DNA of 64,000 nt, from NCBI GenBank assembly GCA_042408215.1, contig JAYFMW010000028.1, positions 128,001-192,000 on the forward strand, given 5' to 3'. Of the stretch, positions 21,751-37,626 are shown piece after piece (the stretch's first letter is position 1; every line of letters starts with the position of its first letter). The notes under the pieces are model-generated. The model was not told the DNA's origin and made no database searches. It was given only the letters and a program-made list of their open reading frames with translations. The stretch comes from Microcoleus sp. Its GTDB lineage: Bacteria > Cyanobacteriota > Cyanobacteriia > Cyanobacteriales > Microcoleaceae. A program made the translations under genes and the position numbers.

Positions 21751-22066
21751 TTGAAGAGAAAATTGCTTGTCAGTTACAGCATAAATCACTCCCCTAGGGA
21801 GTGTGACCCCTAGTGGGACAGCTAGCGAATCGGATCGAGATATCATGGGTGGAGTCGGAAATCTGTCATAAATTCTGAGATTATCGTAAATAAGTGCAAA
21901 GCTAAGACTACTGTTAATGAGTAAAAATTACTATAAGGTCAGTATTTGCGATCGAAAAATGTAAATTTTGATTAAGAAATATAGACAAAAGTTTCTTTAC
22001 CTCGTAGTCTGACTTTGTTGGTAAACTTGTACAAATTTCTCTAAAAGAACAAAAGGAGTCAATCTA

Positions 22067-22492
22067 ATGTTTGATTTTATCAAGAATTTCTTCGGCGGTA
22101 TTTTCGGCTTTTTTGCTAGATTGTTGGGCTTGAAAAAGTCTGAATATTTTCTAGATTTGGGCAACTCTGATGTCAAGGATTCACCTAAAGTTGAGCTGGC
22201 TGCTGCTAAAAAGCCTGAGCCCGTAGTCGCAGCACCAGCAGCAGCAAAAGCTGATGCTCCTAAGTCTGAATCGCCTACGAAAGCAAAGACGGAAACAGCC
22301 AAAAAGTCTAAGAAAGAACAGGAACCTGTGAAAGTAGCCGCAGCTACTAAGGGGAAAGCGTCGAGTTCAAGTGAACCGACTCTTACCTTTGCTCCTAATA
22401 ATTTAATGCCAACACCAAATGCCAGCCGTAGAACTCCTGGGCCCAGCATGAATAGTTTCCGGGAAATGGCTCGTCAGGTTAAAACCAAGTAG
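22067..22492 (+). CDS. Hypothetical Ala/Lys/Pro-rich protein
   Basis: AGGAG RBS; amphipathic N-terminus; C-terminal RRTPGPSMNSFREMARQV. Confidence 0.75.
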   Translation: MFDFIKNFFGGIFGFFARLLGLKKSEYFLDLGNSDVKDSPKVELAAAKKPEPVVAAPAAAKADAPKSESPTKAKTETAKKSKKEQEPVKVAAATKGKASSSSEPTLTFAPNNLMPTPNASRRTPGPSMNSFREMARQVKTK

Positions 22493-22580
22493 GAAATTGT
22501 TAAGCTCGTCCCCCGCACTTGAGTCGGGGGATGAACTTAATATAGCCTTTCTCAGGTAAATTAGGTGATCCCGATGCACA

Positions 22581-22727
22581 GGGCATAGGGCATAGGGCAT
22601 AGGGCATTGGTGGTTCCTTTTCCCGATCGCAATTGCGAATTGAATTGTCAGTACCTAATTCCTTGAAAACCGCTATAGTCAATAGTCAACAGTCAACAGT
22701 CAACAGTTAACAGTCAACTGTCAACTA
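22581..22727. repeat. STRR heptamers GGGCATA and AGTCAAC
   Basis: Direct inspection. Confidence 0.8.
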
Positions 22728-23877
22728 TATTACTTTGATTTCTGAGGAAGGCTAATCCGCTGTATAGCTGGAAAGCAGCGTCCCAAGGGGTTTCGGATTT
22801 GCGATCGACCTCTATATGAGCATCGATCTTGCTTAACATATGAGTATAATCGAGAACTGTCTCGGCAAAGGGAGTAAATTCCGACCAAACTGTAACGTTA
22901 AGCTGTTGGTCAAGTATTTCAAGTAAGTGATTCCAGTTAATTCTGGTGGTACTTTGAGGGATTTGTTGAGATTTTTGGGAACGCGATTTTGGGTTTTTGG
23001 GATTGGTTGAAGTGGGGATATCTGCTGAAGTTTTGGTCAAGTCAATACCTTGTTGAAATTGGTAACTTTGGTCGCAAATTCGCAGAATGCAGTGGCGGCT
23101 GGGAATGTGTAAATCGCAGATTTGAGCGTAATCTTGGGTGATTTCTTTGTGGCGAAATTGCTCTGTTCGTCGGTGGGGTGAGTAGTCCATGATTTCCATA
23201 AACATGGGTAATAAGCCTTCTACTCTTTGGCTGACTTCTGACCAGTTAAATTCGATCGCACCTAGCTGATTCAGTTGATTTTTGCAAACGACGGCGGGGG
23301 GAGACAGGGATTGGAAGTGTTGAACTCGGAAGATTTGGATTTTTTGAATGTCGGCTAGGGTTCCCCAGAATACGGGAATTCCGGCGTTGAGGAGTTCTTG
23401 GCCGTAGATTTGGACTTCGGCGATGGGGCCGGTTTTGTAGAGTCTCCAGCCGCGACTTTGAACTTGCATCCGCGTTGTGTAGGTGTCGGTTTTGAAGATT
23501 CTGCTGATGTTTTGTACGGCGGCGGGTTTGTCTGACTGGCTGACTGCTTCGAGGATCAGGAGTGCTGGTTCGAGGTTGCTGGGGTCGTTTTTGGCGGTTT
23601 CTATGGCTTGTTTGCGTCTGTTTTGTGCTGCGGTTTCGATGCGTTGAATCCCTTGGCGGGCTTGGGAGACTATTTTGGGGTTGGTGATGTCGCGGAGTAT
23701 TTGTTTGTAGGTTGTTTCGGCTTTTTCTGGGTGATTGGTGAGTTCGTAGTAGCGCGCCATGTAGTATTTCACCCAGGGATTTTCGGGTGATTCTGTTTGT
23801 AGTTGTTTGATGAGTTGGGCTGCTTCTTTGTATTCTTTGTCTTCTAGGGCGGCGGCTATTTCGGTGATGTCTGTCAT
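22714..23877 (-). CDS. TPR-containing hypothetical protein
   Basis: N-terminal TPR-like helices (PENPWVKYYMARYYE), 387-aa ORF. Confidence 0.75.
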   Translation of the reverse strand: MTDITEIAAALEDKEYKEAAQLIKQLQTESPENPWVKYYMARYYELTNHPEKAETTYKQILRDITNPKIVSQARQGIQRIETAAQNRRKQAIETAKNDPSNLEPALLILEAVSQSDKPAAVQNISRIFKTDTYTTRMQVQSRGWRLYKTGPIAEVQIYGQELLNAGIPVFWGTLADIQKIQIFRVQHFQSLSPPAVVCKNQLNQLGAIEFNWSEVSQRVEGLLPMFMEIMDYSPHRRTEQFRHKEITQDYAQICDLHIPSRHCILRICDQSYQFQQGIDLTKTSADIPTSTNPKNPKSRSQKSQQIPQSTTRINWNHLLEILDQQLNVTVWSEFTPFAETVLDYTHMLSKIDAHIEVDRKSETPWDAAFQLYSGLAFLRNQSNIVDS

Positions 23878-24091
23878 GGCGGTTGGGGGAATGGCGTTGT
23901 TTCTATCTTGGCTGATGTTTGGTTGGTTCCGCCACTGGTTAACAATTTTTGCTTTTATGTTAGTTGGGGATTTTGGGATTTTGGCAAAATTAAGAGTTGG
24001 GAGTTTTTAACCGCAGATGAACGGGGATGAACGCGGATATGTCAGTTAAAAATGATTATAATTAAGACACAAGTATAAAAAAGTTTTCGTT

Positions 24092-24709
24092 ATGGTGCAA
24101 ACAGCAGTTAAACTTACTTTTGATGATTTCCTAGAACAGTACCCTGACGGTTATGGCATCTACGAACTTGTAAACGGAGAAATTATCGAGGTGGACGCAA
24201 CAAGAGCTCATAAAAATGTAGCGCGCTATCTGGTCAAGTGTTTTGATGGGGAAAACGAACGTTTAGGACTTGATTACATTGTTGATAAGGATATCCGAAT
24301 TAGGACTGTGACGGCTGGGGGACAAGAACAAGGTAGAAATCCTGATGTTGGGGTGGTAAGTGGCTCTTTGTGGAATAGTAATGTATTAGCTTATGGTGCT
24401 TTAAGGGAACCAATTCAGTTAGCGGTTGAGGTGGTGTCAACAAATTGGGAAGATGATTATGTTGATAAGCTAGATGAGTATCAACGGCTAGGTATTTTTG
24501 AATATTGGATTGTGGATTATTTGGCGATCGCATCTAGATATTATCTGGGTAATCCGAAAGTTCCTACCGTTTTTGTTTACCGTTTAGTGGAAGGGAGTTA
24601 TCAGGTTCAATGTTTTAGAGGATGCGATCGCATTATTTCTCCAACTTTTCCCGAATTAGACGTGACTGTCGATCGGGTTATCAAAAGCAGTAAAATTCAA
24701 AAACTGTAA
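24092..24709 (+). CDS. Uma2 family PD-(D/E)xK endonuclease-like protein
   Basis: YELVNGEI, RNPDV, LAVEVVS, DKLDEYQRLGIFEYWIVD. Confidence 0.92.
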   Translation: MVQTAVKLTFDDFLEQYPDGYGIYELVNGEIIEVDATRAHKNVARYLVKCFDGENERLGLDYIVDKDIRIRTVTAGGQEQGRNPDVGVVSGSLWNSNVLAYGALREPIQLAVEVVSTNWEDDYVDKLDEYQRLGIFEYWIVDYLAIASRYYLGNPKVPTVFVYRLVEGSYQVQCFRGCDRIISPTFPELDVTVDRVIKSSKIQKL

Positions 24710-24727
24710 TATTTGCGATGATGTTTG

Positions 24728-25474
24728 TTACAACTGATTGGAGTTAACGCTTAATGTGTAAGTACCTTTGCTAGTGCGATCGCCTCCTTTAACAACTATT
24801 TTATAAGTGCCGTTACTAGGCAATTTTACGGTTAGTTTAGACTCTGGGGGACGCTGAAAGTAGTTTGTTTCTCCGGCAATCCTCTTACCGTTGGTGTCGA
24901 ACAATGTTATGTTGTGGTCTAATCCTCTGCTGCCGAGTTCTATCGTAATAGATTGACCTGCACGTCCTTGGAACGTATGTTCGCGGGATTCGCCTTCTTT
25001 TAAGGTTTCTCGCTGCTGGAGGAGGGAGAGAGAGGTGAGTTTTGGGCGATCGGGATTGCTTAAATCTAAGCCATAATTAGTCGCTGTTGCACCAGGACCA
25101 TTTCCTTCTCTGACTGCGACGATAAAGGCTGTTTTATTGTTAGGGTCTCTGACTATTTTATCAATAAATTGTCTTTGTATTTTTTCTGCATTTAAAGGTT
25201 TTGGCTGGGTAAAATTCGGTCGTGAAATACAGAAAAGAACTGCTCCATCTTGATAGCGACCTGCGTAAAATGAATATTTTTGACCGTTAGCTGTAAACTC
25301 ATTTTGATTGAATACAGTGAATTTGTCAAATTGTAGTTGCTGGTTTCGGCGGCAATCTTTATCGATATAGATTTCGTTGGCTGATGGCTGTCGCTGGGCG
25401 AAAACTGCTGGAATGCTTGCAGCAGCTAGGATTGCTGTTATGATGGTGATGATTGTGGGCGATCGCATTTTCAT
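24728..25474 (-). CDS. Secreted protein with C-terminal PPC (pre-peptidase C-terminal)-like domain
   Basis: Signal peptide ending AVFAQ; HTFQGRAGQSITIEL...LPSNGTYKIVV...GTYTLSV. Confidence 0.8.
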   Translation of the reverse strand: MKMRSPTIITIITAILAAASIPAVFAQRQPSANEIYIDKDCRRNQQLQFDKFTVFNQNEFTANGQKYSFYAGRYQDGAVLFCISRPNFTQPKPLNAEKIQRQFIDKIVRDPNNKTAFIVAVREGNGPGATATNYGLDLSNPDRPKLTSLSLLQQRETLKEGESREHTFQGRAGQSITIELGSRGLDHNITLFDTNGKRIAGETNYFQRPPESKLTVKLPSNGTYKIVVKGGDRTSKGTYTLSVNSNQL

Positions 25475-25481
25475 ATTTACC

Positions 25482-26063
25482 TCAATTTTTTTGTGGAATC
25501 GGTCTTCCTGAACGCAGAATGCGGCTAATTTGCTCGTTAGTCATAAAAGGAGCTTCTAAACAAGTAAGTGCTAAACATCCTCCTCCTCCTTTTTCATGAT
25601 ATCTAATTTCAGTATCTTTTCCATAACGTTGAAAAGATCCGTTACTAAGTGACCAGGAGAAAAAAATTGCTTTGCCAGATTTTAAATACTTATCTCCTAT
25701 ATCTGGGTTAATTTGTTGCTGTCCACCAACTTTCCGAGGTGGGTAGCTAGATAAACCTTGCTTGAGAATGTAAGCTCCAATAACGCTGGCTCCCGTATTG
25801 AAGTAAACATAGCCATTCCTAAACTCCGATGGTAGGTCGTAATCATTTTGAATATAACGTCCCCCACCTTGTTCTACAAATTCTCTCCAAGTTATAAGCT
25901 CAGACTTGGGTTGTTGAGCAACATTTTGTGGCCAGCTTCTCATCTGAGAATTACCCGTAGCCTGTCTCGACTGTGCAAATACTGATAAAGACCAAGCACA
26001 CAAAATTGTCAAACCTATTGTTAAACCCAAAAGCGATCGCACTTTCATAAACTTTATCCTCAT
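25482..26063 (-). CDS. Secreted hypothetical protein (paralog of 33520..34173)
   Basis: Signal peptide; AQQPKSELITWREFVE...CLEAPFMT shared with the paralog. Confidence 0.8.
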   Translation of the reverse strand: MRIKFMKVRSLLGLTIGLTILCAWSLSVFAQSRQATGNSQMRSWPQNVAQQPKSELITWREFVEQGGGRYIQNDYDLPSEFRNGYVYFNTGASVIGAYILKQGLSSYPPRKVGGQQQINPDIGDKYLKSGKAIFFSWSLSNGSFQRYGKDTEIRYHEKGGGGCLALTCLEAPFMTNEQISRILRSGRPIPQKN

Positions 26064-26066
26064 TTT

Positions 26067-26789
26067 TTATCTGACATTTTGAATCGGAGATTCGTTAGCC
26101 ATAGAAATAGCTAAATTAATCAATGCTGATTTATCGCGTTGTGATACAATATTGCGATCGCGATCGAATCCGCCTCTTAGACTTACCCGATAATTTAAAC
26201 CATCTTGCTTCCAAATCACGCTCAGAGAAGGTGGAGTTGAAGCTCCTCCAGAATTTTGAACGACGAAAAGACCGTCAATACCTTGCTTTAAAGTGATAGG
26301 TGTCCTTTCTAGGACTGCCATTTCTGAGCGGATCAAGTCTCTTTTATCTGATTCTGTCCAAGTTTCATAACCGCGCCTTCTAATTTCGTTAACTCTTTCA
26401 AGTTCTTTCAGAGTAAAAATGGGTTGGGAACGCAGATTATTGTCGTAGGTAGAATTTTGCGCTACCGTAATAATTCCAAATTGACAGGATCTACTCGTGC
26501 AGTTCGGTTGTGAATTTAGCCAGACAGCAAACTCTCCTGGGATGGTTGTAATGACTTGTGGGTAAAGTTGAATTTCGCTGATATTAACACTTGAAGGTAG
26601 GCGCATTACCCATCCTCTAGGAAGCTGAGTTTGAATCTCTCTAAGAATGGGTCTAAACATAGGTGCGGGTTCAGCATTTGCAGTTTGGGGTTTTGTCAGA
26701 CAGTAAGCTCCAAATACCGTACAAATGCCTAAACTAATTGTAATGGTGATTGGCGATCGCCCTTTCATAAGTAATCTCCTTATTTTCAT
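26067..26789 (-). CDS. Secreted hypothetical protein
   Basis: MKGRSP leader, hydrophobic core, ANA cleavage-like site. Confidence 0.75.
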   Translation of the reverse strand: MKIRRLLMKGRSPITITISLGICTVFGAYCLTKPQTANAEPAPMFRPILREIQTQLPRGWVMRLPSSVNISEIQLYPQVITTIPGEFAVWLNSQPNCTSRSCQFGIITVAQNSTYDNNLRSQPIFTLKELERVNEIRRRGYETWTESDKRDLIRSEMAVLERTPITLKQGIDGLFVVQNSGGASTPPSLSVIWKQDGLNYRVSLRGGFDRDRNIVSQRDKSALINLAISMANESPIQNVR

Positions 26790-26844
26790 TATTTCTCATC
26801 TACAAGCTTAGAATGCCAGCTTATTAACTATTGAAATGGCAATT

Positions 26845-29091
26845 TTAATTGCGAAGTTTATCAGCATCTTCTAAGGTAATAGTAGCTTTTTCGCCTGCGG
26901 CTGTAGCATAATAAAGGTCTGCCCCTCTTGCAAATGTGTTTAACTTACTGCCAGTTATTCTAGTAGCTTTTACAAATGTACCAAGCCCGGGTAGGATGAA
27001 TTTATCAAGGGCAATTTCTAGACCAATGTTACCGACATCTTTATATACATCTAGGAAAGCTCCTATAAATGGGTTTTTAGATGGATCGCTTTCCCCTGAG
27101 ACTGAAAACTCAATTAATTGTTTGAATACTTCAGCAGCTTTATTAGGATCGACCAAATCCATTGTGAACATAGCTTGACTATTAGGTTCACTCTTGAAGA
27201 AGTTGATAGTGGTTTTGGATGTCCGGGAAAAATATGCTTCTTCGGCAAATCTTTTGACAAATTGCTTCACTGTCTCGTCTTTAGCAAACCCTGGATCTCC
27301 TTGAGCGAGCAATACTAACTCAAGGGATAACATAGCAGCATTATACCTAAATGCTTCGTTACTTGACTTGGTTATTTTTAAATATCCCCCAGGCGGAATA
27401 ATGATGCTATTCTTATTCTTATCCGAAAACTCTTGCTCGTTTAAATTTTTTCTGGTATCTGTCAAAGAATATTGATTAAACAAGGAGACAGGAAACCTTG
27501 TAAACATATCAATACCGGAATCAATCAATCCTGTGGGAGGTTTATTACCCTCAATGATTTTAATCTTCACTAGCTGTTTCTTGGAATTATATATCTGGAC
27601 TAAAGCTTCAGCAGAACCTTGATTGAATACTTTCATTTCAACTTTGATGGAACGATCTGCTTGTCTCTCCCATGTGATGCTATTGAATATAAGTCGAGAA
27701 TCTGCTTCTTTGCTCCTACAAGAAGCCGGAGATTCTTGTCCTAAAAAATTTCTGGTTTTACCACTACACACAATATTATTATAAACTATTGTGTCATCGC
27801 CATTGATCTGGGTTTGTCTCTGTGGATTCTGTTGATTTGAAGCAGGCGATCGCCCTGTCTGCGTCTGTTGGCTTGGAGAGGGCGATCGCCTTGCCATCAC
27901 CTGTTGCCCCGTTCTACAATCTGGGTTTTCCTTTGTAGGAGATACGCCATTTCGTAGATGCGTGTATCTATAAGATTCACACACCACCACATTTTGATTG
28001 GGATTTGCAGCAGCAATGCGGAGGTCTAATAAATACGTGATAACTGGATAGTTCCAGCCATTTCCATACCTAACAGTGCCGTAAAAAAAACCATTTTTAC
28101 TAGAGTCTATTTTCAATTCACTAAGAGAGTTTACTGGAGTAGTAGGACTGCTTGAGCCTCTGTAGGGTTCAGCACCACTTAAAATTACTCTTTTTGAATT
28201 TACAAGATTTGGCTTAGATATTTCCAAGGGGCCGTCGCCAAAAACTGAAGTAATAAGAGTGACCCAATAAGTCTGATTCCCGATTTTAAAATCTGCTAAT
28301 GTAGCAACTCCCAGACCAGTAAATATCAGCTTTCTACCATCCCATAAAAAAATCCCATAATCTTCTCTTGAAATATATCTTTTTTTCTCGTCCGATATAG
28401 GTCTAAGGGGTTGTCGCATAGCTTCTTTGAATGGACTTTGCAACATTTGTTCGGGGGGAACGCGCAGTATTTTTTCACCTGTGCTCAGTTTTCCAATCTC
28501 AAAGCGGTTAAACTGGTTGATGTTCTGAGCTACTTGAGGCGATCGCCCTGTCTGTGTCTGTTGGCTTGCAGAGGGCGATCGCCCTGCTGTATTTTGTTGA
28601 TTTGGATCGGATATTCTATTGATAGATACTCTATAACCTCCAGTATTGTTATTGAAGGAATTAGCTACATCGTTATAGCAAAGAAATAGCCTTCCCGACT
28701 GACCCATAGATAGTTGATTATTTGAGCCTATAAAAAAATAATTTCCATTTGCACCAACTTTACCTACAAGCCCACCAATAAAACCTTGATATATAGCATT
28801 AGGGTCATCCTTTTTACCTATATTGACTCCATTCACAAACCTGTCGCCATCAGGATTAGTTAGGGGGGTACTATTTACAGGCGATCCTTCATAACCGTAA
28901 CTTCCTTGACCACTTGCTGAAAATTGTAAGGAATCTCCTCTAGATACATTGATTCCCGAATCAACGCAGAAATTTTTAGCTGGAACTGCGATCGTTGTTT
29001 GTGCCAAAACTGATTCAGAACCAGCACCAAAAATTACAAAACCTACCATCAAGCCAAAAAGCGAGATCTCTTTCATAAACTTAATCCTCAT
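26845..29091 (-). CDS. Secreted three-module protein; N-terminal LecA/PA-IL-like beta domain
   Basis: Signal peptide; VDSGINVSRGD...GGLVGKVG...GRLFLCYND...NNTGGYRVSI; two GRSP linkers. Confidence 0.75.
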   Translation of the reverse strand: MRIKFMKEISLFGLMVGFVIFGAGSESVLAQTTIAVPAKNFCVDSGINVSRGDSLQFSASGQGSYGYEGSPVNSTPLTNPDGDRFVNGVNIGKKDDPNAIYQGFIGGLVGKVGANGNYFFIGSNNQLSMGQSGRLFLCYNDVANSFNNNTGGYRVSINRISDPNQQNTAGRSPSASQQTQTGRSPQVAQNINQFNRFEIGKLSTGEKILRVPPEQMLQSPFKEAMRQPLRPISDEKKRYISREDYGIFLWDGRKLIFTGLGVATLADFKIGNQTYWVTLITSVFGDGPLEISKPNLVNSKRVILSGAEPYRGSSSPTTPVNSLSELKIDSSKNGFFYGTVRYGNGWNYPVITYLLDLRIAAANPNQNVVVCESYRYTHLRNGVSPTKENPDCRTGQQVMARRSPSPSQQTQTGRSPASNQQNPQRQTQINGDDTIVYNNIVCSGKTRNFLGQESPASCRSKEADSRLIFNSITWERQADRSIKVEMKVFNQGSAEALVQIYNSKKQLVKIKIIEGNKPPTGLIDSGIDMFTRFPVSLFNQYSLTDTRKNLNEQEFSDKNKNSIIIPPGGYLKITKSSNEAFRYNAAMLSLELVLLAQGDPGFAKDETVKQFVKRFAEEAYFSRTSKTTINFFKSEPNSQAMFTMDLVDPNKAAEVFKQLIEFSVSGESDPSKNPFIGAFLDVYKDVGNIGLEIALDKFILPGLGTFVKATRITGSKLNTFARGADLYYATAAGEKATITLEDADKLRN

Positions 29092-29122
29092 TTTTGTGTT
29101 GATTGTTTCAGCGTTATAAATA

Positions 29123-29776
29123 CTACCGTCTGTTTGGCAGAGAAGCCGTACAGCCAGCTTCCTTAAACTTTTGAATTATTTCCTGCTTTACCCGATCGGG
29201 TAAGTAGTTTATGTTGAACCCAGGAATATGTGTAACGCTTGGAGGTTTTAATGAACCTGTCAGACTATAACCATAAAGCCTTGCTTCGTCTTTTTGAACG
29301 TATGTGTCTCCTAAATAATCTCCTTTTTGAATAAATACATGATTGTTAGTGGTGCGGATTGTTCCATTAGATACGGAACCAACTGTAAATAATATACCGT
29401 GAGGCTCTGTTGTATTTCCGCTCCAACCACCGAGAACAGTATCGATGATACAAACACGACCCTTGGTATTTGAAGGATAAATAAATTTTCCTTCTTCTAA
29501 TGCTCTGTACGCACCCAGAAAAGGAACCACACCCGGATCTACTTTTGACCAAGCCAATCTAAAAGTTCTCAACTGGTTAATTTCTGGAGTATCTTTTCGG
29601 CTCGTTTTTTGGAAGGAATCAATCTGTTTCTCAAAATCCAGCCTCAACTTCTTAAGTTCGGCATCGGTCGGATATCGCTCTGAATTTGCCAATACTGATA
29701 ATGAACCAGTCGCAACTATTGCGAAACTCATGATTAAACTAATAAGCGATCGCCCTCTCATAAACTCTATCCTCAT
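29123..29776 (-). CDS. Secreted hypothetical protein (paralog of 29810..30487)
   Basis: RYPTDAE, VDPGVVPFLG, YPSNTKGRVCII, FKEAGC. Confidence 0.8.
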   Translation of the reverse strand: MRIEFMRGRSLISLIMSFAIVATGSLSVLANSERYPTDAELKKLRLDFEKQIDSFQKTSRKDTPEINQLRTFRLAWSKVDPGVVPFLGAYRALEEGKFIYPSNTKGRVCIIDTVLGGWSGNTTEPHGILFTVGSVSNGTIRTTNNHVFIQKGDYLGDTYVQKDEARLYGYSLTGSLKPPSVTHIPGFNINYLPDRVKQEIIQKFKEAGCTASLPNRR

Positions 29777-29809
29777 TTTGATTGTTGATTGTTTCAGACT
29801 TTATTTAAC

Positions 29810-30487
29810 TCAGCGTATAGAAGAAATACATCCAGCCGCCTTGAATTCTCTAACAATCTTAGAATTTTCCTGCGGGTCAGCTCTTGATACATCTAACTTT
29901 GTAGGGTCTTTAGGTAGTTCGGGATATGTATAAATATCAGAGCCTGGTTCTGCTCTTGCTACATTATTGCGATCGACAAAAGCAACCAACAAGAAAACAT
30001 TGCCACTTGGATTTTTCTGGTTAATTAGTACCCTACCAGCTAACTCTCCGGTAAGACGAATATGTTGCTTGTCAATGGAGCCTACGCTAAATTTGTAGAT
30101 CGGGCCGGGAGAAGCACGAATAACGCAAACGCGACCCCTGACATTTGATGGATAAACGCCTATGTCTCCATCATTATTTACCCACCAACCCAGAAAAGGT
30201 GCAACTGTCGGATCGACTCGCGATCGAGCTTTAACAAAGGATTCAAGTGCTTGTTTCTCGCTTGATGTACGCCGATCCCGTTCCCATCCACCGCAACATT
30301 CTCTTGAATAAGGCGACGAAGACGCTCGCTGTTGGAATTCTCTGATGAGTCGCACAATTTCAGCATCTGTCGGATATCGCTGAGACTGTGCAAAAACTGA
30401 TAATGAACCTGTCACCAATACTGCACAGCTTACTATTAAACTGACAAGCGAGCTCCCTTTCATAATCTTTCCTCTCTTTGTACGCAA
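29810..30487 (-). CDS. Secreted hypothetical protein (paralog of 29123..29776)
   Basis: RYPTDAE, VDPTVAPFLG, YPSNVRGRVCVI, FKAAGC. Confidence 0.8.
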   Translation of the reverse strand: MRTKRGKIMKGSSLVSLIVSCAVLVTGSLSVFAQSQRYPTDAEIVRLIREFQQRASSSPYSRECCGGWERDRRTSSEKQALESFVKARSRVDPTVAPFLGWWVNNDGDIGVYPSNVRGRVCVIRASPGPIYKFSVGSIDKQHIRLTGELAGRVLINQKNPSGNVFLLVAFVDRNNVARAEPGSDIYTYPELPKDPTKLDVSRADPQENSKIVREFKAAGCISSIR

Positions 30488-31216
30488 TTATCTCACAAAA
30501 GCAAATGATGAAACCACTATGTTCAACACTTTTTCTTCCACAGGACTAATATTTTCTCCATATTTAGAAGTATAAATAGTAACTATGTTTCGCTTGTCAG
30601 GTGTAAGGAAACTAGCTGACAAGGAAGTTTCTACGTTGTCTGCATCTATTTTTCCTGTCATAGTAGACTTAGTAGTGTAAACAAAAGCTTTTTGCTTAGC
30701 AATAGTAGTTTCTCTGATATTTTCTATTATCTTAATAAATACACCAATTTCAGGAATCAGACGGGTTTCAGATGTCGCTGCTTTTACTGTCACAAAAACA
30801 GGTAAAGTTTGATACCCGCAAGCAATAGGGTCATTTTTTTTGCAACATTCTAAGAATTTATCATCAGCAGGATTGTGTAAAGTTATAGTCAAAGTTTTAC
30901 CATCCTGCTCTTTTTCGATTCGATAGTTAGTAGGTATGTTGAACGAGAATTGAAAATTATTCTCTTTAATGTTTTTGGTTTCTTTGGCTGGAGCAATGCT
31001 GGAGCCTCTTTTACATGGATTTTGTCTAGCTATTTTCAACTCACCGGGTAATCCTGCTGCTAGTAAGCTTTTAGTTTTCGTTGCTAACCCCATGCTGTGC
31101 TTTGATTCGACCAAACAGCCAACTCCTAAAATCACCAATGTTGCAACTGCACCGAAAAATACTCTACCTTTTTTCATCATCTTTTTTGTCTCCTTTGTAG
31201 TTGATATTGAAAACAC
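30488..31216 (-). CDS. Secreted/lipoprotein-like hypothetical protein (possibly PsbP/Mog1-like fold)
   Basis: Hydrophobic N-terminus LVILGVGC; FSFNIPTNY; C-terminal IVVSSFAF. Confidence 0.65.
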   Translation of the reverse strand: MFSISTTKETKKMMKKGRVFFGAVATLVILGVGCLVESKHSMGLATKTKSLLAAGLPGELKIARQNPCKRGSSIAPAKETKNIKENNFQFSFNIPTNYRIEKEQDGKTLTITLHNPADDKFLECCKKNDPIACGYQTLPVFVTVKAATSETRLIPEIGVFIKIIENIRETTIAKQKAFVYTTKSTMTGKIDADNVETSLSASFLTPDKRNIVTIYTSKYGENISPVEEKVLNIVVSSFAFVR

Positions 31217-31231
31217 AAATTACTTGCCTGA

Positions 31232-31810
31232 TTACGAACAGCCTTCAACCTGATCGACTTCAGGAAGTTTACCAGAACGAAAGCGCTCTACACGATTTTT
31301 GCTAGTCTCAAAAATTATCTGGTATTTTTTATCAGCCACATCTTTAGGGACAAAAGTTAGATATTTTTGATTGGTAAGTGGAATACGCTGGTAAGGATGT
31401 CTAGTTACTTGAATTTGCCCCGGATATAGTGAAATAATTCTCTCTTCAGTATCTCCAATCTTTGCCCCTTTGATTGTTGTAATCTGCTTATTGCTAAAAA
31501 TATCAACTCTAGCAATGCGACCCTTTGTGACCATAAAGGCAATTCCTTTTGGTTCTCCTTTAGGTTGAACGTAGGAACATTGATACTCGTCCCAGCCGCC
31601 GCTCCCACTTATGATTAATTTAATCCCAGCAGATTGTGAGGCTTCATCAACTGTCATCCCGACTCTAATCGGACCAATACCATTCAGTGCTAGTTTCGAG
31701 TTATCTGTTAGTTGCACTTGAGCATTGACTGATGTTGCCCAAACTACAAAAATGACAATTGTGCCGATTAGTAAGGTAACAAACTTGGGTAAACTGTTTA
31801 ATTCTCGCAT
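31232..31810 (-). CDS. Secreted hypothetical protein (tandem paralog of 31877..32440)
   Basis: LALNGIGPIRVGMTVDEA, TTIKGAKIG, EGCS terminus. Confidence 0.82.
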   Translation of the reverse strand: MRELNSLPKFVTLLIGTIVIFVVWATSVNAQVQLTDNSKLALNGIGPIRVGMTVDEASQSAGIKLIISGSGGWDEYQCSYVQPKGEPKGIAFMVTKGRIARVDIFSNKQITTIKGAKIGDTEERIISLYPGQIQVTRHPYQRIPLTNQKYLTFVPKDVADKKYQIIFETSKNRVERFRSGKLPEVDQVEGCS

Positions 31811-31876
31811 CGATCGCTATTCCTCCTATATGTCCGCATTCAATACTTTTGTAATTCATTGACTTGACCGATCGTA

Positions 31877-32440
31877 TTAAGAACAGCCTTCTATATACTC
31901 TACTTGAGGAAGTTGCCCAGACCTGAAATATTTAACACGCCTCTCAATCCCTGTCTCAAAAATTAAACGATAGTTGCTGTCCGCCGCATCTCGCGGCACA
32001 AATGTCAAGTTATTTCCTCTACCGCCCAGCGGATTTTTGATGACTCTAATTTGTCCGGGATAGAGAGAAAATATCTGCTCTTCAGTATTTCCAATTTTAG
32101 CTCCTTTAATTGTAGTAACCCGTTCGTTGCTAATATCAATTCTGACAATGCGACCCTTTGTTACCATAAAGTTAATTCCTTTCGGCTCCCCTTGCGGCTT
32201 AAAATAGGAACAAAAATTTTCATCGAGGCCTGCATAGCCTTTCACTAACCTCACTCCAGCAGCTTGTGAGGCCTCATCAACTGTCATCCCAACTCGGATC
32301 GGACCAATACCATTAAGCGCTAGTTTCGAGTTCTCTGTCAGTTGCGCTTGAGCGTTGACTGATGTTACCCAAACCGCAAAAATGACAATTGTGCCGATTA
32401 GTAAGGTTACAAACTTAGTTGAACTGTTTAACTTTCGCAT
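31877..32440 (-). CDS. Secreted hypothetical protein (tandem paralog of 31232..31810)
   Basis: Near-identical N-terminal ~60 aa; diverged loops. Confidence 0.82.
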   Translation of the reverse strand: MRKLNSSTKFVTLLIGTIVIFAVWVTSVNAQAQLTENSKLALNGIGPIRVGMTVDEASQAAGVRLVKGYAGLDENFCSYFKPQGEPKGINFMVTKGRIVRIDISNERVTTIKGAKIGNTEEQIFSLYPGQIRVIKNPLGGRGNNLTFVPRDAADSNYRLIFETGIERRVKYFRSGQLPQVEYIEGCS

Positions 32441-32457
32441 CGATCGCTCTTGCTCCC

Positions 32458-32868
32458 TTACTTCTGTAAAAATTTCTCTAATTCTGCGGTACGTTGTTCG
32501 GTAACTCTAGTAAGACAAGAATTAAGCACATATCCATAATTGCTACCTCCTCCTCCTCTATCCGATCGAACTTCGTTTTGGCAAGTAGTATCGCGACGCG
32601 GAATCCAAGTGAGTTGTTCATCAATTAGTTTGTTTCTATCGCGCTGATTTAGTTTTGATATAACTTGTTTGTAGACCTCATTAAGCTTGGTATCTGCTTG
32701 TTTATAAAGAGCCCAAAAACAATTGTTTACTTCAGCTTGGGTTTGAGGTTGGTTGCAAGCAGCAGGTTTGCTTGCAGAGGCATCTCTGCCTTGAGCCAAA
32801 ACTACTGAACTGCTCGCACTCAAAAATATTAAACTTATGATTAACCTAAACAGTGATCGCTTTCTCAT
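32458..32868 (-). CDS. LprI-like lysozyme inhibitor family (DUF1311) secreted protein
   Basis: C...TQAEVNNC, ADTKLNEVYKQ, EQLTWIPRRDTTC, CLTRVTEQRTAELE. Confidence 0.85.
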   Translation of the reverse strand: MRKRSLFRLIISLIFLSASSSVVLAQGRDASASKPAACNQPQTQAEVNNCFWALYKQADTKLNEVYKQVISKLNQRDRNKLIDEQLTWIPRRDTTCQNEVRSDRGGGGSNYGYVLNSCLTRVTEQRTAELEKFLQK

Positions 32869-32905
32869 TATTTTTTCTCCTTAAATTAACAGAGAATATT
32901 CAGCC

Positions 32906-33406
32906 TTAGTAGTAACAAGGATGGACTAAACTAACTCCCTGTCTAATTTTTGACCACTCCGATGCTAGTCTCGTTTCCGATCGCTGTATTGCGCGGTAGC
33001 CTAAATCTGGATTACGAGTGTAAAAGATTGCATCTGCTACTTTGTTCAGCACTGAACTGAATACCACGATCTCCCTCGGATTTCTTCCCGGAGTGTCAAA
33101 CTCGGAAAGATGCCACCAATAACTCGGCCCACAACCTCGCTCGTAAACTAAATTACCATCGCGCAATACTTTTCTAATAGCAGCCCATTCGTTAATATAC
33201 TGCGTTTCGTTAGGGCGGATTTTGCGGCGGTTCAGTTGTGGGTGTAGCTTGTAGAAAATATTGTCAGTCCATTCATCGATCGCTTTTTCAGGCGCGTTGT
33301 TGGCTGCAATCATTACTGAAGCAGCGACAGGATAGCCGATATGTTGCGCGAGAACCTTCACAGACAACAAAGGAATGCCGATTAATCCCAATATCAAATA
33401 GTTCAT
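32906..33406 (-). CDS. Secreted hypothetical protein with internally duplicated helical motif
   Basis: DNIFYKLHPQLNRRKI...EWAAIR and DAIFYTRNPDLGYRAI...EWSKIR. Confidence 0.75.
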   Translation of the reverse strand: MNYLILGLIGIPLLSVKVLAQHIGYPVAASVMIAANNAPEKAIDEWTDNIFYKLHPQLNRRKIRPNETQYINEWAAIRKVLRDGNLVYERGCGPSYWWHLSEFDTPGRNPREIVVFSSVLNKVADAIFYTRNPDLGYRAIQRSETRLASEWSKIRQGVSLVHPCYY

Positions 33407-33519
33407 TGCATACCTCGATATTTCATCATTTTTACACTCTATTTTTTCAGATGTTTTGTTTGTGCGATCGCTCTCTAGCTACTTGTTTTGACATAGGCGA
33501 TTGTCTTTTGATCTTTGCT

Positions 33520-34173
33520 TCACTTTTTTTGAGGAATCCGTCTTTCGGAGCGCAAAATTCGGTTAATTTGCTGCTTCGTCATAAAAGGAGCTTCTAAACA
33601 ACTAAGTCTCAAGCAGAATTGACCTGTTTCTTTCACAAATCTAAGTTTTGTATCTTTTCCATAAGTTTGATAAGAACCGACACTACCTCCCCAGTTAAAC
33701 TTAATTGCTTTGCCAGATTTTACATAGCTATCTGCCATAGCATAATCAATTTCTCCTATTCCACTTTTGATTGGTGGGTAGCTAGATAAACCTTGTTTGA
33801 GGATATAAGCTGTAGTATTATCGGCTCCTGGATTGATGTAAACATAGCCATTTCTAAACTCGGCAGGTAGGTCGTAATCGCGGTTGACAAAACACCTTCC
33901 ACCCCGTTCTACAAATTCTCTCCAAGTGACAAGTTGAGATTTTGGTTGTTGAGCAAGATTTTGCGGCTCATCAATCACTTGAGAATTATCTGTGACAATA
34001 TTATCAATTAGAGATTGATTAGCCATTGCAGAAAGTTGAGGCTTGGTGAATTCTCCAAACCCTACAATTGTCAAGCTAAGCATCAAGCTAAATATCGATC
34101 GCCCTTTAATCATTTTTCCTCCCTGTTTGCTAAGATGTCCTATTTGCTGGATTGTCCCCATACACCATTCCAT
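33520..34173 (-). CDS. Secreted hypothetical protein (paralog of 25482..26063); likely start ATG 34113
   Basis: MIKGRS leader; AQQPKSQLVTWREFVE. Confidence 0.8.
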   Translation of the reverse strand: MEWCMGTIQQIGHLSKQGGKMIKGRSIFSLMLSLTIVGFGEFTKPQLSAMANQSLIDNIVTDNSQVIDEPQNLAQQPKSQLVTWREFVERGGRCFVNRDYDLPAEFRNGYVYINPGADNTTAYILKQGLSSYPPIKSGIGEIDYAMADSYVKSGKAIKFNWGGSVGSYQTYGKDTKLRFVKETGQFCLRLSCLEAPFMTKQQINRILRSERRIPQKK

Positions 34174-34397
34174 CCCTCCACCGCAAAAATCGCCACAGTC
34201 TTGAGCTTCTATTTATTTATCAGACTCAATCCCCAAGTTTTATGCAAAATACTCGTTTTTTGTAATAAAACTTTACATAAAGTTGCCCAACGTTGGCAGA
34301 GCCGAGTTTTGAGCTAAGCCCGATCGCCCAGATTTATGGGCGTAGACATTCTTGGCTGGGCACTCTTGGTACCGCCCCTACAAATTTGTATAAATGA

Positions 34398-34500
34398 CAG
34401 GAATTACGCACTCCGACAGAGAAACCGGGTTTTTTCCCGAATCTTCGAGTACGAACGCAGTATTTTCGTAAAAAAACCCGGTTTCTGAACCCCCGTGCGA
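34398..34500. mobile_element. MITE-like element with AGAAACCGGG/CCCGGTTTCT hairpin
   Basis: Related to 9029-9140. Confidence 0.6.
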
Positions 34501-34510
34501 TCGCCCTTTT

Positions 34511-34927
34511 TCATCTTTCCTTAAAATATTTCTCTAATTCGGCCGTGCGCTGTTTAGTCGATCGCTCCAAACACTCATTCAAAAAACCTTGATAACCCGT
34601 ACCGCCACGATTTCTATACACTTCAAACTCGCAGGTATTGTCTCGCACTTTAATCCATCCTAATTGTGATTCTGAAAGTAGGGCTTTCTCTTCCTTGCTC
34701 AACTTAGCAATCAGTTGTTTGTAAACATCATTCAGCCGCTTGTCTGCGAGTTCATACCTCAACCGAATACAGGCTCTAACTTCTACATCGCCTTGAGGCC
34801 GATCGCAATTAAGTTGTTGAGTGATCGCAGAGCGCCCAGATTGTGCAAAAACAGATGTTGTACCGAAAATTGCCAAAAGTGCGATCGACCAAAAGAGCGA
34901 TCGACCTTTCCTCAACTCTATTTTCAT
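34511..34927 (-). CDS. LprI-like lysozyme inhibitor family (DUF1311) secreted protein
   Basis: ADKRLNDVYKQL, SQLGWIKVRDNTC, CLERSTKQRTAELE. Confidence 0.87.
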   Translation of the reverse strand: MKIELRKGRSLFWSIALLAIFGTTSVFAQSGRSAITQQLNCDRPQGDVEVRACIRLRYELADKRLNDVYKQLIAKLSKEEKALLSESQLGWIKVRDNTCEFEVYRNRGGTGYQGFLNECLERSTKQRTAELEKYFKER

Positions 34928-35034
34928 GACTCGTCAACCCACTTATCTGATAAGTCCTCTTAACACGAGACAGAGTTGATTTGATTAATTTAAGTATTTT
35001 TTTATATTTACTGAATTATAACCCCTTTTTTTTA

Positions 35035-35382
35035 TCAGATTCCCAAAGTGTGCTTGAGTGCTGCATCTACTGCCACCATATCCGACCAAATACCAATTTT
35101 GCGATCGATTTCAACTTCTAGAAGCGTCACAAGATTGTCCGTCATAATTACCGAATCAGCTAACAATCCCGTTTGCTTCCCTTCCGGTGTTGCTAGGGCA
35201 ACAAAAACCCGGCTTGGGTGTCCCGATCGGGCTAAATTGCTCGTAATCATTGCCACAATTGTTTGCCCTAAACCAGTCCCCAGATTATTAGTTTGAACTA
35301 TCAAAGCAGGACGGCGTTTCGCAGTACGCAAGTCCGAGTTCGGAAACAAAGCCAGAACTACATCACCGCGATTATAAGGCAT
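35035..35382 (-). CDS. Type II toxin, PemK/MazF family
   Basis: MPYNRGDVVLALFP, KRRPALIV, VAMITS, DSVIMTD; start overlaps the upstream gene. Confidence 0.92.
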   Translation of the reverse strand: MPYNRGDVVLALFPNSDLRTAKRRPALIVQTNNLGTGLGQTIVAMITSNLARSGHPSRVFVALATPEGKQTGLLADSVIMTDNLVTLLEVEIDRKIGIWSDMVAVDAALKHTLGI

Positions 35383-35602
35383 CGTAAGCATCCATTTCCG
35401 GTAGTTCCCAATCAGGAGCAAATCTCCTCAGCCGAACCCGTAAATCTGCTGCTTGCTCCTGGTCAATACCGCGAGATTGCAAGTTTACTAACCCTGATTT
35501 TGGCATAAAAGTAACAATTACTTGCACTTCTTCCATGTCGGCAGGTGTTTCCAATAACTCAATTTTGCCATTTCGATATATACCCTCTACTGACTGTAAC
35601 AT
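35372..35602 (-). CDS. Putative antitoxin (AF2212/DUF104-like)
   Basis: SVEGIYRNGKIELLE; acidic tail DWELPEMDAYDAL; overlaps toxin start. Confidence 0.75.
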   Translation of the reverse strand: MLQSVEGIYRNGKIELLETPADMEEVQVIVTFMPKSGLVNLQSRGIDQEQAADLRVRLRRFAPDWELPEMDAYDAL

Positions 35603-35681
35603 TTTACTCCTCTGATAATTACCTATTTATATTTTAGCTACGATCGCCAAACCCAGCAAGTCTCCGTCTTTTTTGTGGGTA

Positions 35682-36662
35682 TCAGCACTTCTCAAAAGCC
35701 GCGCCCACCAACGATAAAGCCACAATCGGCGCAGTCACCGCTCTGAGAATTCTACTCCCCAAAGAAACAGGCTCAAACCCAAATTCGATCGCCCTTTTCA
35801 CCTCACCATCCGTCCATCCACCCTCCGGCCCAATAGCTATGACAATCGATAATTCTCCCCCAGGGGGCGGGCACGGGGGCACCGCCCCTACAAAGGCGGG
35901 AGCGAATTCTTGCTCCCCCCTTACCAAGGGGGGCTGGGGGGGAGCGAATTCTTTCTCCCCCCTTACCAAGGGGGGCTGGGGGGGAGCGAATTCTTGCTCC
36001 CCCCTTACCAAGGGGGGCTGGGGGGGAGCGAATTCTTGCTCCCCCCTTACCAAGGGGGGCTGGGGGGGAGCGAATTCTTTCTCCCCCCTTACCAAGGGGG
36101 GCTGGGGGGGATCTAAACCAATCAAACAATCCCACAAATGCCGATTATCCCCGCGAGCAACACAAATATATCGATATTTTTGACCGCAATCTTTCACCGC
36201 CAAATCAAACGAAATCGGCTCCAAAATCCTCGGCACAAATTGACGTTCCGACTGTTCCGCCGCCTCAGCAGCAATCCGCCTCCATCGATCGACCTTTTGA
36301 GCACTCGGTTTCAGCAAAGTGCGATCGCTCGTCACCGGCACAATACTTGCGACACCCAACTCCGTCGCCTGTCTCACAACCTCGTCAAACCCGTTGCCCT
36401 TGGGCAATGCAGCCATTAAAGTCACATCAACCGGGAGCTCCCTGTTGACCGCAATTTCCTCTGTTATTGACGCAATTAACCCTGTTTCCTGGGCTTCTAG
36501 GACTGCTAGCCACCAATGTCCTCTGCCGTCCATCGCAATAAATCGATCGCCCTGATTCAGTCGCAACACTCGATGTATATAATGCTGTTGTTCGGGGGTT
36601 AGGTTGATTGTGCGATCGCACATTTGAGCGGCATTAATTGCTAATCTTTGTAATTGAGCCAT
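35682..36662 (-). CDS. rsmE: 16S rRNA m3U1498 methyltransferase with in-frame repeat insertion
   Basis: HYIHRVLRL, VVRQATELGV, AAEAAEQSER, IAIGPEGG, SLGSRILRAVTA; start ATG 36662. Confidence 0.95.
   Translation of the reverse strand: MAQLQRLAINAAQMCDRTINLTPEQQHYIHRVLRLNQGDRFIAMDGRGHWWLAVLEAQETGLIASITEEIAVNRELPVDVTLMAALPKGNGFDEVVRQATELGVASIVPVTSDRTLLKPSAQKVDRWRRIAAEAAEQSERQFVPRILEPISFDLAVKDCGQKYRYICVARGDNRHLWDCLIGLDPPQPPLVRGEKEFAPPQPPLVRGEQEFAPPQPPLVRGEQEFAPPQPPLVRGEKEFAPPQPPLVRGEQEFAPAFVGAVPPCPPPGGELSIVIAIGPEGGWTDGEVKRAIEFGFEPVSLGSRILRAVTAPIVALSLVGAAFEKC
35861..36113. repeat. Five 42-bp palindromic units plus one REP, in frame inside rsmE
   Basis: PPQPPLVRGE(K/Q)EFA x5, then PAFVGAVPPCPPP; core CCCCCCTTACCAAGGGGGG. 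Confidence 0.92.
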
Positions 36663-36680
36663 TGAATTTTGGATTGTTCG

Positions 36681-37495
36681 TTTTCTATTGGATTTGTTTT
36701 TTTTACCGCAGAGGGCGCAGAGAGCGCTGAGGAAGAGGGGAAGAGAGGGGATGGGTCTCTCCTGGACGCTTTTCAATTTGATTCTGTTTCTATTGGATTT
36801 GTTTTTTTTTACCGCAGAGGGCGCAGAGAGCGCTGAGGAAGAGGGGAAGAGAGGGGATGGGTCTCTCCTGGACGCTTTTCAATTTGATTCTTTTTCTATT
36901 GGATTTGTTTTTTTTACCGCAGAGGGCGCAGAGAGCGCTGAGGAAGAGGGGAAGAGAGGGGATGGGTCTCTCCTGGACGCTTTTCAATTTGATTCTTTTT
37001 CTATTGGATTTGTTTTTTTTACCGCAGAGGGCGCAGAGAGCGCAGAGGAAGAGGGGAAGAGAGGGGATGGGTCTCTCCTGGACGCTTTTCAATTTGATTC
37101 TTTTTCTATTGGATTTGTTTTTTTTACCGCAGAGGGCGCAGAGAGCGCTGAGGAAGAGGGGAAGAGAGGGGATGGGTCTCTCCTGGACGCTTTTCAATTT
37201 GATTCTTTTTCTATTGGATTTGTTTTTTTTTACCGCAGAGGGCGCAGAGAGCGCTGAGGAAGAGGGGAAGAGAGGGGATGGGTCTCTCCTGGACGCTTTT
37301 CAATTTGATTCTGTTTCTATTGGATTTGTTTTTTTTTACCGCAGAGGGCGCAGAGAGCGCTGAGGAAGAGGGGAAGAGAGGGGATGGGTCTCTCCTGGAC
37401 GCTTTTCAATTTGATTCTTTTTCTATTGGATTTGTTTTTTTTTACCGCAGAGGCCGCAGAGAGCGCAGAGGAAGAGGGGAAGAGAGGGGATGGGT
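36681..37495. repeat. Tandem array, period 105-106 bp, 7 full copies + 1 partial
   Basis: ACCGCAGAG starts at 36705, 36811, 36916, 37021, 37126, 37232, 37338, 37444; variation mostly in poly-T length. Confidence 0.95.
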
Positions 37496-37626
37496 TTTTT
37501 GTTTGTAAGTTTAAAGGAAAAGCATTTACAACTGGAATTCTTTGATAAATCCCAGTTTTTTTCTGCAAATGCTCTGCCCTTATATTACTTTTGTCTGAGG
37601 TCTATTGCAGACAATCGAAAATCGGC

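Follow-up and report, generated by a model that had tools for sequence, protein, structure and literature searches.

The subject of this report is an array of 13 open reading frames (ORFs), g1 to g13, at positions 24728-34927 of a 64,000-nt stretch of a Microcoleus sp. genome (assembly GCA_042408215.1, contig JAYFMW010000028.1, positions 128,001 to 192,000; we refer to this whole stretch as the window). All 13 ORFs lie on the minus strand, and each codes for a predicted exported protein. The array is probably a recombinase-free, combinatorial collection of exported proteins that is shuffled by short-homology recombination and by horizontal transfer. Among relatives, its gene content, gene order, signal peptides and domain strings differ. 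Much of the evidence concerns the short leaders at the starts of many of these genes, and the octamer HIP1 (highly iterated palindrome 1) that many of the leaders contain.

The original prediction for this locus, made from the sequence alone, was of 13 co-oriented genes with signal-peptide-like starts, mostly short gaps and four paralogue pairs, and all of these points were confirmed. Export was predicted using a hydropathy heuristic, according to which every N-terminus is hydrophobic (11-residue mean hydropathy 2.2-3.2), no protein has a later membrane segment, and the cysteines past residue 35 number 2, 4 or 6. By inspection, the signal peptides end in Ala-Gln-type sites. With corrected starts, 10 of the 12 intergenic gaps measure 3-66 nt, the two exceptions being 113 and 397 nt. 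The paralogue pairs are g5/g6 (130/187 residues identical), g8/g9 (75/217), g1/g4 (61/136) and g2/g12 (108/193). By our ORF calls, the array is the sole run of more than three co-oriented signal-peptide-like ORFs in the genome. It sits between rsmE and a gene encoding a tetratricopeptide repeat (TPR) protein, which are neighbours across the order. The features of the array are listed below, where F numbers denote families and G numbers denote related genomes.

34511..34927, minus strand: g1, LprI-family exported protein (PF07007, E 7e-21); same position in most relatives.
34497..34504, no strand: HIP1 just past the g1 stop codon; in relative G014 it is fused directly to the HIP1 at 24776.
34114..34510, minus strand: 397-nt spacer, including a dispersed inverted repeat (34394-34510) with about 250 BLAST hits in the genome.
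33520..34113, minus strand: g2, of the unnamed family F6; weakly similar to the C-terminal domain of RseB/MucB; missing in G008, with a 9-nt repeat at the start codon as boundary.
32906..33406, minus strand: g3, family F7; its signal peptide differs.
32458..32868, minus strand: g4, second LprI-family protein (PF07007, E 2e-21).
31877..32440, minus strand: g5, family F2; YfeY/DUF1131/BLIP-like fold in a predicted model.
31232..31810, minus strand: g6, tandem paralogue of g5 by sequence comparison.
30488..31180, minus strand: g7, family F8.
29810..30463, minus strand: g8, family F4; in G008 and G044 the unrelated gene F14 takes its place.
29123..29776, minus strand: g9, family F4; probable start 29761; leader HIP1 at 29746.
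26845..29091, minus strand: g10, PA-IL-like lectin, F17 and C-terminal domain A; probable start 29076; PF07828 at E 5e-4, below cut-off.
28537..28587, minus strand: g10 linker 1, with HIP1 at 28575 and 28539 in the Arg-Ser frame; exact breakpoint of a middle-module swap.
27844..27894, minus strand: g10 linker 2, with HIP1 at 27882 and 27846 in the Arg-Ser frame; exact breakpoint of a middle-module swap.
26067..26789, minus strand: g11, family F5; probable start 26768; leader HIP1 at 26753; Mog1/PsbP/DcrB-like fold as a lead only (Z 6-7, model of the homologue P0080).
25482..26063, minus strand: g12, family F6; probable start 26048; leader HIP1 at 26033.
24728..25474, minus strand: g13, F3N and PPC domain (PF04151, E 2e-6); leader HIP1 at 25459; the internal HIP1 at 24776 is a joint in G008 and G014.

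In many genomes of the genus and the order, rsmE and the TPR gene lie close to each other, and the interval between them can therefore be compared. Among 20 regions beside the TPR gene, 15 reached rsmE; with seven more, these gave a sample of 22 relatives. In 20 of the 22 the interval holds 0-4 exported-protein genes, while G008 has 11 and G044 has 10, with differing contents; across 23 genomes, the window included, the number ranges from 0 to 13. Gene content and order are thus not invariant, and the modular, shuffled locus of the original prediction is borne out both by this variation and by the position of the crossovers in the leader. Arrays of the same gene families occur at other loci in G081, G018, G046, G006 and G068, with up to 15 ORFs. 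In total, 185 ORFs from 38 array loci in 30 genomes fell into 30 clusters, of which two, F25 (a spurious ORF) and F26 (an RTX protein), are not array genes and were excluded before junctions and reading frames were counted. Scoring ten candidates per genome detected family F6 in 11 of 301 genomes from the order. Of nine F6 regions compared from outside the genus, one is a 10-gene array with the same leader (G177); array genes number 2-3 in five others and one in two, and the last lacks them altogether. The homologues of g12 that have a named source are from Microcoleus, Kamptonema and Oscillatoriaceae.

The exchange of array genes appears to be horizontal, as judged by sequence comparison. In G044 the core genes are 90-92% identical to those of the window and both ends of g10 are 98% identical, and in G008 the core genes are 97% identical and the best matches to g3 and g5-g7 only 74-79%. 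The genome encodes ComEC and DprA, and DNA may be taken up from relatives. Contigs from four public sequencing runs span most of the stretch piecewise, and 34-48% of the aligned part continues into unlike sequence. In one such contig, of 5.8 kb, the middle of g10 is replaced from 27890, beside a linker HIP1; the same contig has a weak join of the g2 leader to g10, supported by 27 nt. Two RNA runs contained just 0.05-0.07 of the sequence words and gave no sign of expression.

We determined the unit of exchange by asking which neighbour each spacer follows. The test used spacers only, in 76 leader junctions that represent 44 distinct family adjacencies; junctions without an MK-x-RS-like leader and spacers longer than 140 nt were excluded. 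Spacer identity is 0.63 for pairs with the same upstream family, 0.46 for the same downstream family and 0.43 for the background, and lengths agree within 3 nt in 52%, 11% and 7% of pairs, respectively. In permutations, ownership by the upstream gene is significant (p<0.0005) and ownership by the downstream gene is not (p 0.23 and 0.35). For example, the spacer behind F6 genes is 7 nt long in front of six different families, that behind F8 genes is 24 nt long in front of four of five families, and two F4 paralogues in G177 are trailed by the same spacer and then by different genes. Because the spacer tracks the upstream gene, and because the leader tracks the downstream gene from about codon 8 onward, each unit comprises one gene body together with the spacer, the ribosome-binding site and the beginning of the gene that follows, with crossovers in the leader. 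The original prediction had instead placed a common ribosome-binding module in front of each cargo gene, and this part has to be given up. It had also pointed out DNA common to the upstream regions of the genes at 29091 and 29776; the sharing is real, but is explained by the upstream genes g9 and g8, which are paralogues carrying their own spacers.

The claim that the array genes have related leaders stands for nine of the 13, which begin with MK-x-RS. The genes g3, g5, g6 and g7 are without this leader, and the HIP1 word is missing from the leaders of g8 and g10. A leader repeat of 96 nt occurs in five copies with 60-77% identity. The N-terminal extensions MRIKF and MRIEF are probably ribosome-binding sites, with the true start at the second ATG. 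On re-scanning, all HIP1 and CGATCG positions in the original prediction were correct: HIP1 is exact at 25459, 26033, 26753 and 29746, has one mismatch at 32853, 34095 and 34897, and CGATCG adjoins the ATG at 31811 and 32441. Exact HIP1 sites number 5097 in the genome (0.69 per kb), and therefore single sites mean little. Nonetheless, HIP1 with at most one mismatch is enriched in the first 40 nt of the array genes (7/13), as compared to other signal-peptide-like ORFs (25/324; Fisher p 4e-5, which is overstated since the leaders are related) and other ORFs (236/4206).

The silent bases of HIP1 in leaders are conserved. Between leaders of different families, silent-site identity is 0.78, 0.89 and 0.74 at the three HIP1 codons, versus 0.36 at other four-fold leader sites, in pairs that are not independent of each other. 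Ser5 is encoded by TCG in 38 of 44 leaders, compared with 14% of all Ser codons in the genome. Of the distinct CGATCG sites, 60 of 71 within the first 60 nt and 63 of 158 in gene bodies have the Arg-Ser frame, versus 14% in long ORFs genome-wide. In the G177 array, which comes from another family, 6 of 10 leaders have the same word in the same position. A search of the genome with a profile built from the nine leaders gave high scores for these nine alone; weak matches were C17:273626 and C8:154980. The first of these is a lone F4 gene with a degenerate leader (G000:C17:272592-273626), followed by another small exported-protein gene and located between two copies of a duplicated membrane-protein gene.

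Beyond the gene-level layer, the analysis refined the picture by a second, domain-level layer of shuffling at Gly-Arg-Ser linkers. In g10, the lectin-like module, F17 and the C-terminal domain are joined by two 51-nt repeats with two HIP1 sites each, and g10-type proteins in relatives and among database homologues have more than 10 module orders, in frame. Modules F17, LprI, F4 and F22 are also found as stand-alone genes. In multi-domain members, the same Arg-Ser-frame word is present at most linkers; Gly-Arg-Ser occurs in most linkers, and some (F20, F27, F28) lack it. Because CGATCG is mostly in the Arg-Ser frame, recombination between any two such words would stay in frame. Polymorphic toxin systems have a variable C-terminal toxin domain and a cognate immunity gene downstream; here there are three alternative C-terminal domains among g10-type proteins, none of which has a toxin match in Pfam, and lipase-like domains occur in 2 of 30 distant homologues. 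In the g10 homologue P0148, the first linker (residues 158-184) is in shifted frames yet open, which suggests compensating slips within the repeat. The 1295-residue protein P0105 ends in an F6 domain; by inspection, we take its other regions to be caspase-like, NTPase and WD40-like, and presumably the F6 module thus also enters signalling proteins.

The mechanism that we propose for the array uses only host functions. Crossovers lie at the ATG-AAA...CGATCG block, or deeper in the signal peptide. Host recombination between short repeats, both within the chromosome and with DNA from relatives, would delete, insert, fuse and swap units, and the common register would keep most products translated, in frame and exported. 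HIP1 would be the invariant core of the repeat.

Several joints lie exactly on HIP1, in support of the original prediction. The g10 middle module that differs between the window and G044 has HIP1 exactly at both of its ends, F9 is present in G044 as an indel flanked by the two copies of an 18-nt repeat with HIP1 in it, G014 joins the HIP1 at 34497 straight to that at 24776, and in G008 an F10 gene that replaces g13 ends on the HIP1 at 24776. About 16 of 51 clustered sharp array breakpoints are near a start codon by eye. At control breakpoints outside arrays, CGATCG is present in both partners in only 2 of 104 cases, versus 6 of 51 within arrays (Fisher p 0.016), although the block rules differ slightly between the two sets and BLAST ends are imprecise.

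It is important to emphasize that a number of observations weigh against the proposed mechanism, or against a role of HIP1 in it. The 6 of 51 array breakpoints with CGATCG within 6 nt in both partners compare with 4.6% by chance (p 0.03), and the other 45 do not support HIP1 itself as the driver of the events. The g2 indel used a 9-nt repeat at the start codon, while loss of g4, a signal-peptide swap in g11 and an internal swap in g12 occurred at other microhomologies without HIP1. At least one breakpoint is upstream of a ribosome-binding site, and one G018 array holds scrambled fragments. In an earlier test that included upstream coding bases, codon 3 tracked the downstream gene slightly more than the upstream gene, and therefore many crossovers precede HIP1. 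The leaders and linkers have common ancestry, so the HIP1 counts are not independent. Finally, HIP1 is reported to be conserved in all frames genome-wide (PMC5861425), and its conservation in leaders therefore need not mean that it has a role here. The best reading of these data is that HIP1 is a favoured, but not obligatory, joint and the core of a short repeat. A causal role of HIP1 in the exchange would be a further step, and we consider it doubtful.

The strongest competing explanation gives HIP1 exactly that role. It holds that methylated HIP1 is a Chi-like or site-specific crossover point, and that the arrays evolved their one-frame placement of it for in-frame exchange. The conserved silent sites, the preference for TCG at Ser5 and the G177 leaders are all expected from this idea, as are the joints with only 9-11 nt of common sequence, all of which are HIP1. 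Moreover, homologous HIP1 sites reportedly raise integration in Synechococcus PCC 7002 up to 7-fold, and more than 100-fold if methylated (10.1101/2024.09.10.611283), and earlier evidence for site-specific and illegitimate recombination at HIP1 has been summarised (PMC4390886). The present genome encodes cytosine methyltransferases, which may or may not act on HIP1. However, most array breakpoints are off HIP1, and g8, g10 and whole subfamilies are mobile without the word. In addition, protein-level requirements could by themselves favour Arg-Ser, both in the n-region of a signal peptide and in a flexible linker. We therefore regard HIP1-directed exchange as unlikely.

A second alternative is that there is no system at all, i.e., that the interval is a variable hot spot created by ordinary tandem duplication, deletion and gene conversion, in which the leaders and their HIP1 sites are relics and the HIP1 joints reflect the abundance of this octamer. 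Such a history could account for the four paralogue pairs, for the coming and going of toxin-antitoxin and Uma2 genes in the same interval and for the fact that most relatives have only 0-4 genes, and HIP1 is indeed frequent. It does not sit well with spacer ownership by the upstream gene, with the recurrence of this architecture at several loci and beyond the family, with the many in-frame domain strings of g10-type proteins, or with HIP1 joints being rarer outside arrays. Already weakened by these results, this explanation is quite improbable.

That the array is an integron, or an integrase-less attC cluster with unusual sites, is the least credible idea and is largely refuted: the genes are co-oriented, tightly packed and variable, with toxin-antitoxin modules nearby, and a tyrosine recombinase does lie beside one small array in G081, but the crossovers are inside coding leaders and, in agreement with the original prediction, neither an integrase nor attC sites were found. 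Specifically, a search of the whole genome for the integron integrase IntI (TIGR02249) gave three weak matches, none on this contig (best 29 bits, against a cut-off of 265), the five tyrosine recombinases (PF00589) are all encoded on other contigs, and a simple pattern for the attC core pair (RYYYAAC...GTTRRRY), used without an attC covariance model, is absent from all 12 spacers, most of which are too short for it.

A comparison of the combinatorial array with known systems also informs its interpretation. It resembles the erp (OspE/F-related) genes of Borrelia burgdorferi, which are described as having one leader, bodies of many independent origins, and frequent recombination and horizontal transfer (PMC10016077); the corresponding trait here, a homologous leader on unrelated bodies, is found in nine of the 13 genes. 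The same source describes erp products as lipoproteins, whose genes occupy a single site on cp32 prophages and have a conserved promoter, whereas here up to 15 genes stand in a row, rsmE and the TPR gene enclose the locus, and the signal peptides end, by inspection, in Ala-Gln-type sites. As to a promoter box upstream of each locus, the upstream DNA here tracks the upstream gene, and neither promoter nor terminator scans of the locus found an excess over shuffled sequences (24 promoter-like sites, 27 expected). Also unlike erp, the upstream gene supplies the ribosome-binding site, domains are shuffled at linkers, and the repeat has a HIP1 core. Integron cassette arrays are similarly variable and co-oriented, with units that begin and end inside the recombination site; unlike in integrons, no IntI, attI or attC was found here, the joint is a coding leader rather than a folded non-coding site, and events are imprecise. 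The array thus works like erp and looks like an integron, and is a member of neither.

Polyimmunity loci and proteins (PMC3482391) share with the array tandem unrelated small genes, multi-domain fusions and strain variability, and the cargo has LprI and folds that immunity proteins also show. That source describes most immunity proteins as cytoplasmic, whereas all cargo here is predicted to be exported; there is also no Imm match and no known cognate toxin, and the array includes lectin-like and PPC modules as well. HIP1-associated recombination in Synechococcus likewise produced deletions and joints at the octamer (PMC4390886; 10.1101/2024.09.10.611283). As reported there, the cases are laboratory constructs or single events, whereas here fixed-frame HIP1 recurs at the natural boundaries between genes, and between domains, in a multi-gene repertoire. 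What sets the present array apart is the ribosome-binding site owned by the upstream gene, the linker layer and the in-frame HIP1, of which the HIP1 register is the new element. A literature search, whose coverage lacked most subscription journals, found no description of these cyanobacterial arrays.

The function of HIP1 is said to have been open for three decades (PMC13756078), and this locus offers natural events with octamer joints, conserved silent bases and a fixed reading frame to that question. It also shows how simply a cassette array can be built with no integrase, every gene bringing along the ribosome-binding site of its successor, and it comprises about twenty mostly unnamed exported domains in rapid exchange among mat-forming cyanobacteria. 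In its boldest form, the hypothesis would be that HIP1, held in the Arg-Ser frame by leaders and linkers, is the natural in-frame assembly joint of filamentous cyanobacteria, by which DNA taken up from neighbours is built into integron-like arrays and multi-domain exported proteins without a recombinase, as inhibitors and binders shared by a community. This form is speculative and on balance improbable; if true, an in-frame assembly joint would give HIP1 a concrete, selected function.

Less can be said about what the exported proteins do. The genes g1 and g4 belong to the LprI family (lysozyme inhibitor in Pfam), g13 has a PPC domain and g10 a weak match to a PA-IL-like lectin; the other nine proteins have no Pfam match over the cut-off. 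None of the 13 matches an Imm family in Pfam or NCBIfam. The predicted model of g5 resembles YfeY and BLIP (2qzb, Z 11.3, root-mean-square deviation 3.8, 128 aligned; Foldseek E 5e-5). P0080 is a natural F5-F6 fusion, in the model of which the F5 part appears Mog1/PsbP/DcrB-like and the F6 part RseB/MucB C-terminal-like; with Z at most 7, these are leads only, and Foldseek with the two-domain model found no match at E 0.001. Sequence searches of the PDB with the F2 and F5 profiles gave nothing significant. In an atlas search, the best matches for g12 and g9 (0.89) are hypothetical proteins. A DarT/PARP lead for g12 (0.88) was not borne out, as the matches listed for the model of a homologue were RseB/MucB instead, although DarT/PARP may simply be absent from that list. 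Fold matches to immunity proteins (Tsi3, TplEi and RhsI1, at middle rank) have Z 5-6, which is in the range of common folds.

The cargo families have conserved scaffolds with variable patches. Folds of the YfeY/BLIP, Mog1/PsbP/DcrB and RseB/MucB types mostly bind other proteins, and on this basis the cargo may be a variable, polyimmunity-like repertoire of inhibitors or binders that protect the envelope against foreign enzymes. We put this forward tentatively, given that there is no Imm match and no toxin partner, and that the lectin-like modules would fit adhesion just as well. The main alternative, adhesion or binding to the matrix, seems a somewhat less likely role.

The genes that flank the array are as follows.

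24092..24709, plus strand: Uma2-family gene (PF05685), variable flank.
35035..35602, minus strand: mazF-like toxin gene (PF02452) and putative antitoxin, variable flank.
22714..23877, minus strand: TPR protein gene, conserved downstream anchor.
35682..36662, minus strand: rsmE, conserved upstream anchor.

At the TPR end of the interval (loci L033, L046, L051, L052, L066, L068 and L069), small toxin-antitoxin-like genes alternate with Uma2 genes, and the mazF pair is missing in some relatives. The mazEF and uma2 genes are 95-98% identical where core genes are 90-92% identical. The inverted repeat at 34394-34510 adjoins the HIP1 at 34497, and small indels occur right at that HIP1 among relatives, which recalls repeats inserting into HIP1.

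Observations from other array loci include a two-gene LprI-F5 mini-array beside a Ser/Thr kinase gene in G081 and G001 (L054:2765-8170 and L070:7265-10443), which in G081 also adjoins a tyrosine recombinase and a CoiA-like gene. Within a few kb of a 14-gene array there is a reverse-transcriptase-like ORF (L062:1761-3482, G006:C45), by inspection probably a group II intron. Fragments of several array genes, scrambled and joined at microhomologies, are found in L058:2324-4027 (G018:C9), and could be debris of illegitimate recombination or a misassembly.

No Rfam match was found in 22000-37000. Within rsmE, window positions 35803-36183 are an in-frame insertion of 42-nt tandem repeats, in which a 14-residue unit is present five times; the insertion is shorter or missing in relatives and recurs elsewhere in the genome. 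Between rsmE and a sulfite-reductase-like gene, at 36688-37568, there are long tandem repeats of units of about 126 nt, with repetitive ORFs on both strands.

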